Virus record (IMG/VR): IMGVR_UViG_2563366883_000005
Coordinates: 1-17,580 of that record
Direction: 5' to 3' (one strand)
DNA: 17,580 bases
Source: a virus
Taxonomy: Duplodnaviria > Heunggongvirae > Uroviricota > Caudoviricetes
A model generated the notes under the pieces. It had not been told where the DNA came from. It was given only the letters and a program-made list of their open reading frames with translations, and searched no databases. Positions 8,194-8,377 of this stretch are shown here, piece after piece (position 1 is the stretch's first letter; every line of letters begins with the position of its first letter). The position numbers and the translations under genes are program-made.

Positions 8194-8220
8194 ATAAAAA
8201 AAGGGGCGCAATGCGCCCCT
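8194..8220 (-). terminator. Intrinsic terminator ending the porin island, just upstream of L
   Basis: Minus strand AGGGGCGCA-T-TGCGCCCCT followed by T7-AT, then GGTGGA and the L ATG. Confidence 0.55.
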
Positions 8221-8377
8221 GATAAAATAGTTCAATTAAAAAATCAAAAACGATGAAGGTAATAAAATGAAAATTAAATCAGCTAATAGCTGATCGCAGT
8301 GACCAGTGGAAATATAACTTCCACTGATACAGGCCATCTGTGAGGGCAGATGGCCTGTATTTATTTACCAGTAATCA
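8221..8377 (-). ncRNA. Candidate structured RNA / long 3' UTR downstream of the porin gene (IpeX-like by position)
   Basis: A 157-nt non-coding stretch between the porin stop and the terminator carries at least three inverted repeats (AGCTA-A-TAGCT 8281..8293; CAGTGGAA-atataac-TTCCACTG 8304..8327; AGGCCATCTG-N6-CAGATGGCCT 8330..8355). In DLP12 the sRNA IpeX is encoded just downstream of nmpC (established knowledge). No ORF of meaningful length. Confidence 0.2.

Follow-up and report, generated by a model that had tools for sequence, protein, structure and literature searches.

The closest described relative of the element considered here is IpeX, an RNA that is encoded directly downstream of, and in the same orientation as, a prophage gene for an NmpC-type porin and that ends at the Rho-independent terminator of this gene. 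It is found 3′ of nmpC in the cryptic prophage DLP12 and also downstream of lc in phage PA-2. According to a review, ipeX measures 167 nt, arises from the phage porin promoter as a segment of the porin transcript, undergoes processing, and controls OmpC—a regulation that is reviewed as not proceeding by complementarity alone. Repression of both ompC and ompF by ipeX was reported in a separate paper. Until now, IpeX has been a single, poorly understood example, ambiguous in its mode of action and without a family in Rfam. The candidate RNA described below shares its position and its architecture, is attached to a different porin gene at a different prophage site, and carries a core that is shifted toward the register used by MicF.

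The DNA analysed, hereafter the window, comprises 17,580 nt and belongs to the tail operon of a lambdoid prophage, encoded on the minus strand. Within this operon, the tape-measure gene (10082–13324) is followed by tail gene M (9748–10089; Pfam Phage_min_tail) and tail gene L (7483–8181, minus strand; Pfam Phage_tail_L, 1.2e-92), the start codon of the latter being the ATG at 8181 and not at 8180. A porin gene (8378–9541, minus strand) is inserted between M and L, and the 3′ end of its mRNA bears the candidate RNA. The encoded protein is NmpC/Lc-like, has 387 aa, and matches Pfam Porin_1 at 1.8e-139. It is 68% identical to NmpC of DLP12, 57% to OmpC, and 55% to OmpF; no relative above 68% identity was found in species-representative genomes. 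Like lambdoid morons, the porin gene sits between two tail genes with its own upstream regulatory region and its own terminator. Unlike in those, however, the terminator-proximal 3′UTR is conserved and structured and not a bare terminator.

Upstream of the porin gene, the stretch TTTACATTTTGAAACA (9639–9654, minus strand) is identical over 16 nt to a segment that precedes ompC in K-12 and which we take to be the OmpR C1 site. As judged by this match, TTTACATTTTGAAACA is a possible OmpR box for a promoter driving a joint transcript of porin and RNA. A consensus scan returned no sigma-70 consensus promoter for the porin, and no internal promoter for the candidate RNA either. The same upstream region (9639–9691, minus strand) contains a 29-nt stretch identical at 25 of 29 positions to the segment 27–56 nt upstream of the micF start; its local score of 38, against a maximum of 40 reached by shuffles, makes this similarity weak when taken alone.

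The gap between the porin stop and the L start is non-coding, as a preliminary description of this DNA had it, but the length of roughly 160 nt given there falls short: the gap spans 196 nt (8182–8377), and the whole candidate RNA, from the first base past the stop codon to the end of the U-run, measures about 182 nt (8196–8377, minus strand). On the porin strand, the order of elements is a 17-nt leader, three hairpins with a linker, an AU-rich stretch of about 57 nt, and the terminator. Hairpin 1 (8327–8360, minus strand) features a 14-bp stem with 100% complementarity and a 6-nt loop, CCCUCA, at 8341–8346. Hairpin 2 (8304–8326, minus strand) directly abuts hairpin 1 and has a stem of 8–10 bp, with an inverted repeat of 8 bp. 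The linker GUCACUGC (8296–8303, minus strand) is unpaired and separates hairpin 2 from hairpin 3 (8277–8295, minus strand), the stem of which measures 7–8 bp (inverted repeat at 8278–8294, 8 bp). In other variants, a 13-nt insertion lengthens the stem of hairpin 3 and adds an inner stem of its own. The adjoining core AUUUAAUUUUCAUUUUAUUACCUUCAUC (8252–8279, minus strand) is single-stranded and conserved and constitutes the MicF-like part of the RNA; the second part of the unpaired stretch (8221–8250, minus strand) is U-rich and precedes the terminator.

The terminator (8196–8220, minus strand) consists of a GC-rich stem-loop followed by a U-run and is hence of the Rho-independent kind. Its 9-bp stem (8202–8220) contains seven to eight GC pairs and closes a loop of 1–3 nt; UAUUUUAUC precedes the hairpin, and a run of seven U comes after it. 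The terminator ends 15 nt ahead of the start codon of L and ranks first among the terminator-like sites of the scan, with nine such sites counted in the region against 2.4 expected. Tail gene L comes next in the late operon and is read only if transcription passes this terminator. The gap holds four inverted repeats in all, and the arrangement that the preliminary description had proposed—three consecutive inverted repeats and a strong terminator close to L—is confirmed, with hairpins that are perfect. The minus-strand RNA folds at −71.8 kcal/mol, as compared with −38.8 ± 3.8 kcal/mol for dinucleotide shuffles (z = −8.7; none of 200 shuffles as good).

The gap region was found in 107 of 5426 complete E. 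coli genomes (approximately 2%). Among these carriers, 22 have the region at an identity of at least 99%, nine at 80–90%, and 76 at 60–80%. The median is one copy per genome and the maximum two, always between porin and L. A dispersed repeat of the REP, BIME, or MITE kind was considered and rejected, since an element present once, rarely twice, per genome in a constant context is not a dispersed repeat. The order M–porin–region–L is kept in four of the five annotated E. coli loci that were opened or matched. The fifth, L005 (NZ_CP116169.1), is degraded: M is gone, and L and the tape-measure gene are broken by IS elements, with the porin and its 3′ region left intact. This suggests that the pair of porin and RNA can outlast the decay of the prophage. 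No RNA is annotated at any of the five loci, so that the element goes without annotation in these RefSeq records. The GenBank phage collection, searched with the gap by blastn, gave no match, and a pattern scan of IMG/VR yielded 31 further copies; the retained copies collapse to 12 distinct sequences in all. In the data searched, the module of porin and RNA appears to be confined to E. coli prophages.

Ten distinct homologous variants were aligned (alignment A2), and pairs were counted per stem cell. In this alignment, 97.1% of the stem cells are paired, as compared with 35–44% when the partners are slid by one to three columns. Pairing amounts to 98.6% in hairpin 1, 100% in hairpin 2, and 99% in hairpin 3, and the stem of the terminator does not vary across the family. 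Compensatory double changes occur at eight pairs—three in hairpin 1, four in hairpin 2, and one in hairpin 3. The covariation score and the percentage of paired cells are reached by none of 500 shuffles, and the number of compensatory pairs by six of 500. The four helices also emerge from RNAalifold as an independent prediction, with the AU-rich stretch, including the core, left unpaired. In 26 stem cells, a G·U pair on the porin-sense strand corresponds to an A·C mismatch on the other strand, which brings the paired fraction to 97.1% and 90.9%, respectively. Because these 26 cells pair on the porin strand only, selection acts on the porin-sense RNA.

Conservation is highest outside the stems: The linker is identical in all ten variants (100%), the core is conserved to 92%, the stems to 82–85%, and the other spacers to 57–79%. 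The loop of hairpin 1 is conserved to 91%. The consensus of the conserved core reads GAUUUAAYUUUC..UUAUUACCUU. As judged from these sequences, the pattern is the opposite of what would be expected of a mere stabiliser and is typical of an sRNA. The invariant linker is a possible processing site or a possible second pairing site. In the form GGUCACUGC (8296–8304, minus strand), it has complementary stretches in nmpC-type leaders (GCAGUGAC) and in the leader of ompC (GCAGUGGC); in the RNAalifold prediction, by contrast, its GUCA is paired with the UGAU at the stop codon.

How this region relates to IpeX can be appreciated from the equivalent DLP12 region, which runs from the nmpC stop to the terminator (L001, 2368–2529, minus strand) and folds with a z of −9.4. 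Both regions extend from the stop of a prophage porin gene of the NmpC/Lc type to a Rho-independent terminator on the same strand, and the sizes are comparable, with 167 nt reported for IpeX and about 182 nt for the window RNA. The 3′ region of nmpC has the same layout: three hairpins, the second of which abuts the first, an AU-rich stretch, and a GGGGCG...CGCCCC terminator. Hairpin 1 starts 20 nt after the stop in DLP12 and 21 nt in the window. TGATTAC just past the stop codon and a CCCUCA hairpin loop are common to both, and the IpeX core, AACCUUCUGUUAU...UUACC, is related to the window core at a covariance model E of about 1e-4 to 1e-3. All hairpin stems differ in sequence, the unpaired stretch measures about 57 nt in the window and about 38 nt in IpeX, and the porin of the window is only 68% identical to the NmpC of IpeX. 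The window RNA lies in the tail operon between M and L, whereas IpeX lies in the Q-to-lysis region on the opposite strand. Moreover, the window core is shifted toward the register of the ompC start codon and of the ompF Shine-Dalgarno sequence, whereas that of ipeX fits best at ompC −25 to −11.

The UGAGGG of porin Shine-Dalgarno regions has its complement in the CCCUCA loop, which caps hairpin 1 in the window family and hairpin 2 in the ipeX type (about 2469–2474 of L001) and in the L147 type, with surrounding stems that differ.

Direct comparison of the two RNAs, which had been suggested as the way to check for an IpeX-like RNA, fails: blastn gives no match between the window gap and DLP12 ipeX, and the local alignment score of 19 is reached or exceeded by 122 of 500 shuffles. 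A search of ipeX with the nhmmer family profile picks up the terminator only, at an E of 1.5–2.7. As seen from the sequences, the relationship is visible only via intermediate variants and a structure-aware model. A porin search of viral contigs revealed a third type of 3′ region (L147/L149), which is homologous to ipeX (score 90, reached by none of 500 shuffles) and has in common with the window family the core UUUAACYUUCUGUUAUU at 16 of 17 nt. The linker GUCACUGC recurs in the L147-type region as well and anchors the covariance-model alignment. Local alignments point the same way, with scores reached by none of 500 shuffles for L003 and ipeX, by two of 500 for L003 and L147, and by two of 500 for the window and L147. 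The covariance model R1 was trained on the 3′ half of the window family only, from the linker to the terminator. Its top matches are the L147-type and ipeX-type regions, at full length, at the equivalent position, and with 31–36 bits. The E-values of 4.5e-5 to 3.6e-4 in 134 kb, and of 2e-4 to 2.5e-3 in 540 kb of control DNA, stem from a shortened calibration and are rough. The ipeX-type matches rank above 80 chromosomal porin loci, which served as controls, and the terminator aligns with those of ipeX and MicF.

Chromosomal porin genes are built differently. The ompC, ompF, and OmpD-like genes have nothing but a simple terminator 20–50 nt past the stop. The same holds for 33 of the 35 closest chromosomal porin relatives that were folded (from Citrobacter, Enterobacter, Salmonella, Klebsiella, and related genera), a set in which two members, from E. 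albertii and Shigella, are merely 59–60% identical. The elaborate tail is thus specific to phage-borne porins. Taken together, the NmpC-like porin, the equal layout, the top matches of R1, and the pairing of the core with ompC discussed below lend support to the initial suggestion of an IpeX-like RNA downstream of the porin. IpeX hence belongs to a wider family on phage-borne porin genes that comprises at least three sequence types at two prophage locations. What is new with respect to IpeX is the different porin, the different prophage site in the M–L tail operon, and the shift of the seed to a MicF-like register.

At gathering thresholds, Rfam gives no match in the gap, and the DLP12 region matches nothing in Rfam. 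The best sub-threshold match is MicF (RF00033), a chromosomally encoded RNA antisense to ompF, with 28.3–28.6 bits and an E of 0.011–0.035, and the MicF model aligns at the core (8252–8279). These scores fall far short of the gathering score of 79 bits. Conversely, the second tier of R1 matches, at 20–26 bits, consists of genuine, Rfam-confirmed micF genes in many species. MicF and the window RNA have a common seed, UUUAUUACC(G/U)UCAU, that pairs with AUGAGGGUAAUAAA of ompF, and in both CUAUUU is followed by a GC-rich terminator with a U tail. However, MicF is an independent gene divergent from ompC, whereas the window RNA is a 3′UTR that is co-oriented with, and directly 3′ of, the phage porin. 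The window RNA also features three extra hairpins at its 5′ side, and its best predicted target is ompC and not ompF.

With the 3′UTR-derived sRNAs of enterobacteria, such as CpxQ, DapZ, SroC, and MicL, the window RNA shares the general layout: It uses the terminator of the upstream mRNA, ahead of whose hairpin lie an unpaired, conserved seed and a U-rich stretch, and it ends in poly-U. In sequence, these sRNAs bear no relationship to it, the Rfam match to DapZ amounting to merely 17.8 bits. A U-rich stretch before the terminator in conjunction with a tail of seven U is the usual Hfq-binding module, and the window RNA would thus presumably make use of Hfq. The svsR RNA, a recently described sRNA of lambdoid prophages, is unrelated; it sits in cI and targets lamB.

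Pairing with possible targets was computed with short cores, as whole-length RNAduplex runs yielded long-range duplexes without meaning. The window core is predicted to pair with GAGGGUUAAUAACAUGAAAGUUAAAG of ompC, from the Shine-Dalgarno sequence to codon 5, by approximately 24 bp at −21.5 kcal/mol. With the Shine-Dalgarno sequence of ompF, AUGAGGGUAAUAAA, it forms 14 contiguous pairs at −18.9 kcal/mol. The start region of the phage porin itself fits poorly (−9.6 kcal/mol), as does that of nmpC (−11.8 kcal/mol). The value for ompC is equalled by one of the 288 non-porin start regions that were taken from enterobacterial loci and by one of 1000 shuffled cores (z = −3.7). The ipeX core AACCUUCUGUUAUAU forms a 15-bp match with ompC −25 to −11 at −20.6 kcal/mol, and L003-type cores reach −23.0 to −28.5 kcal/mol with ompC. 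The original 2006 IpeX paper reportedly found no complementarity. When about 80 enterobacterial porin start regions are compared, the best predicted partner of all five RNA types, ipeX included, is an ompC orthologue, with two exceptions: for the L003 type, ompC comes as a close second to an ompF-like translation initiation region, and for the window variant, it is second to that of another porin. In addition, one match of the family profile falls on a porin start region, read on its reverse strand. Pairing between an AU-rich RNA and AU-rich start regions comes easily, and the target statistics are accordingly of moderate strength only. Covarying hairpins and a fixed core matching the ompC start region nevertheless amount to a concrete, testable base-pairing model, for which UUACCUUCAU and the exchange of ACCUUCAU for ACGAAGAU are examples of core mutations in the candidate RNA.

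The region is probably a diverged 3′UTR riboregulator of the IpeX family, by which the host porin genes ompC and ompF would be silenced and the phage porin made from one and the same transcript. The main competitor of this model is a purely cis-acting role, in which the hairpins and the terminator protect the porin mRNA from degradation by 3′ exonucleases and serve as insulation between the moron and the tail operon, with no regulation in trans. A strong terminator at the moron boundary is what such a role calls for, perfect hairpins in a stack are a textbook means of stabilising 3′ ends, and the fold at a z of −8.7 is in line with it; moreover, covariation proves RNA structure and not a function in trans. 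A role of this kind leaves unexplained, however, why the unpaired core and linker are better conserved than the stems, why the cores of five RNA types prefer the ompC start region (as best partner, or as second for two types), and why the region resembles IpeX and MicF—and a single terminator suffices for the chromosomal porin genes. We regard it as a considerably weaker candidate than the riboregulator, though one that retains an appreciable chance of being right.

A role in tuning the translation of the porin itself would rest on the U-rich stretch at 8221–8250, which can pair, within or between molecules, with the porin's own leader. The partner is AAUAGUUCAGUUUAA (9545–9575, minus strand), just upstream of the Shine-Dalgarno sequence, and the predicted pairing amounts to −16.1 kcal/mol, equalled by two of 500 shuffles. 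Leader complementarity recurs in four subtypes at −13.6 to −17.9 kcal/mol (equalled by 2, 9, 2, and 39 of 500 shuffles), and the substitutions of one subtype keep the pairing. Set against this are the modest significance in AU-rich sequence and the poor fit of the most conserved core to the porin's own start region, so that self-regulation as the explanation of the region is improbable; it could, moreover, coexist with the riboregulator rather than replace it. The pairing with the leader may reflect autoregulation, a contact between the 5′ and 3′ ends, or the relic of an inverted copy of the porin leader. A role of the DNA or of the plus strand—a junction for module recombination, a bidirectional terminator against antisense transcription, or a copy of a REP or MITE repeat—draws on the fact that the perfect palindromes of the window sequence fold equally on both strands (−68.5 kcal/mol for the plus strand) and on a T-rich run past the 8327–8360 hairpin on the plus strand. 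Such a run had been pointed out in the preliminary description and is weakly discernible, in that TTATTTAC after the hairpin has five T in eight positions. The scan lists no plus-strand terminator there, however, and the further idea that the hairpin blocks antisense transcription into the porin gene found no support. Across the family, the 26 G·U cells turn into A·C mismatches on the plus strand, an asymmetry that disfavours any role of the DNA or the plus strand, and the one or, rarely, two copies per genome in a constant context speak against a repeat. A plus-strand mini-ORF, MKIKSANS, was likewise rejected because its ATG is lost in other variants. Roles of this last kind are very unlikely.

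In the riboregulator model, the porin moron of a lysogen would be transcribed from its own promoter, with transcription halting at the strong terminator just before L. The 3′ tail, still joined to the mRNA or released by a cut close to the invariant linker, would expose the AU-rich core between hairpin 3 and the terminator. This core would then pair with the Shine-Dalgarno sequence and start codon of host ompC and, via the MicF-like 14-bp match, with ompF, and translation of both would be blocked. The levels of the host porins would fall, and the phage porin, the start region of which is not matched by the core, would substitute for them. During lytic growth, antiterminated late transcription would run through the terminator into L.

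A more far-reaching version may be put forward as tentative and rather doubtful: a one-transcript module for porin replacement that combines an ompC-like promoter of the OmpR type with a composite 3′UTR—a MicF-like seed, a seed against the ompC start region, and the CCCUCA loop against Shine-Dalgarno sequences—which would silence both general porins of the host and contact its own leader.

On this far-reaching reading, the common core in ipeX would imply that base pairing at the Shine-Dalgarno sequence of ompC is how IpeX works after all, and RNAs of the IpeX type and MicF would either have a common ancestry or have converged on one seed. Should the base-pairing model be right, lysogens would exchange OmpC and OmpF for the phage porin via a single transcript. 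Phage receptor display, antibiotic permeability, and surface antigens would then be changed in about 2% of the sequenced E. coli, including STEC.

Two further features of the window concern its tail operon. The C-terminus of J (263–1012, minus strand), the receptor-binding end, is 97–99% identical to that of the PhiR12 phages PV340549–PV340554; in these phages with a matching J tip, the porin module is absent. In addition to the porin, a second, moron-like cassette (5414–7426) is inserted in the operon, between tail genes L and K, which resembles the immI region of P22. It carries an antirepressor with Bro-N and P22_AR_C domains (5414–6328, minus strand), the sar antisense RNA (6330–6396, plus strand; Rfam RF00262, 69.4 bits), an Arc-like ribbon-helix-helix protein (6618–6890, plus strand), and a Clp-protease-like protein (6890–7426, plus strand).
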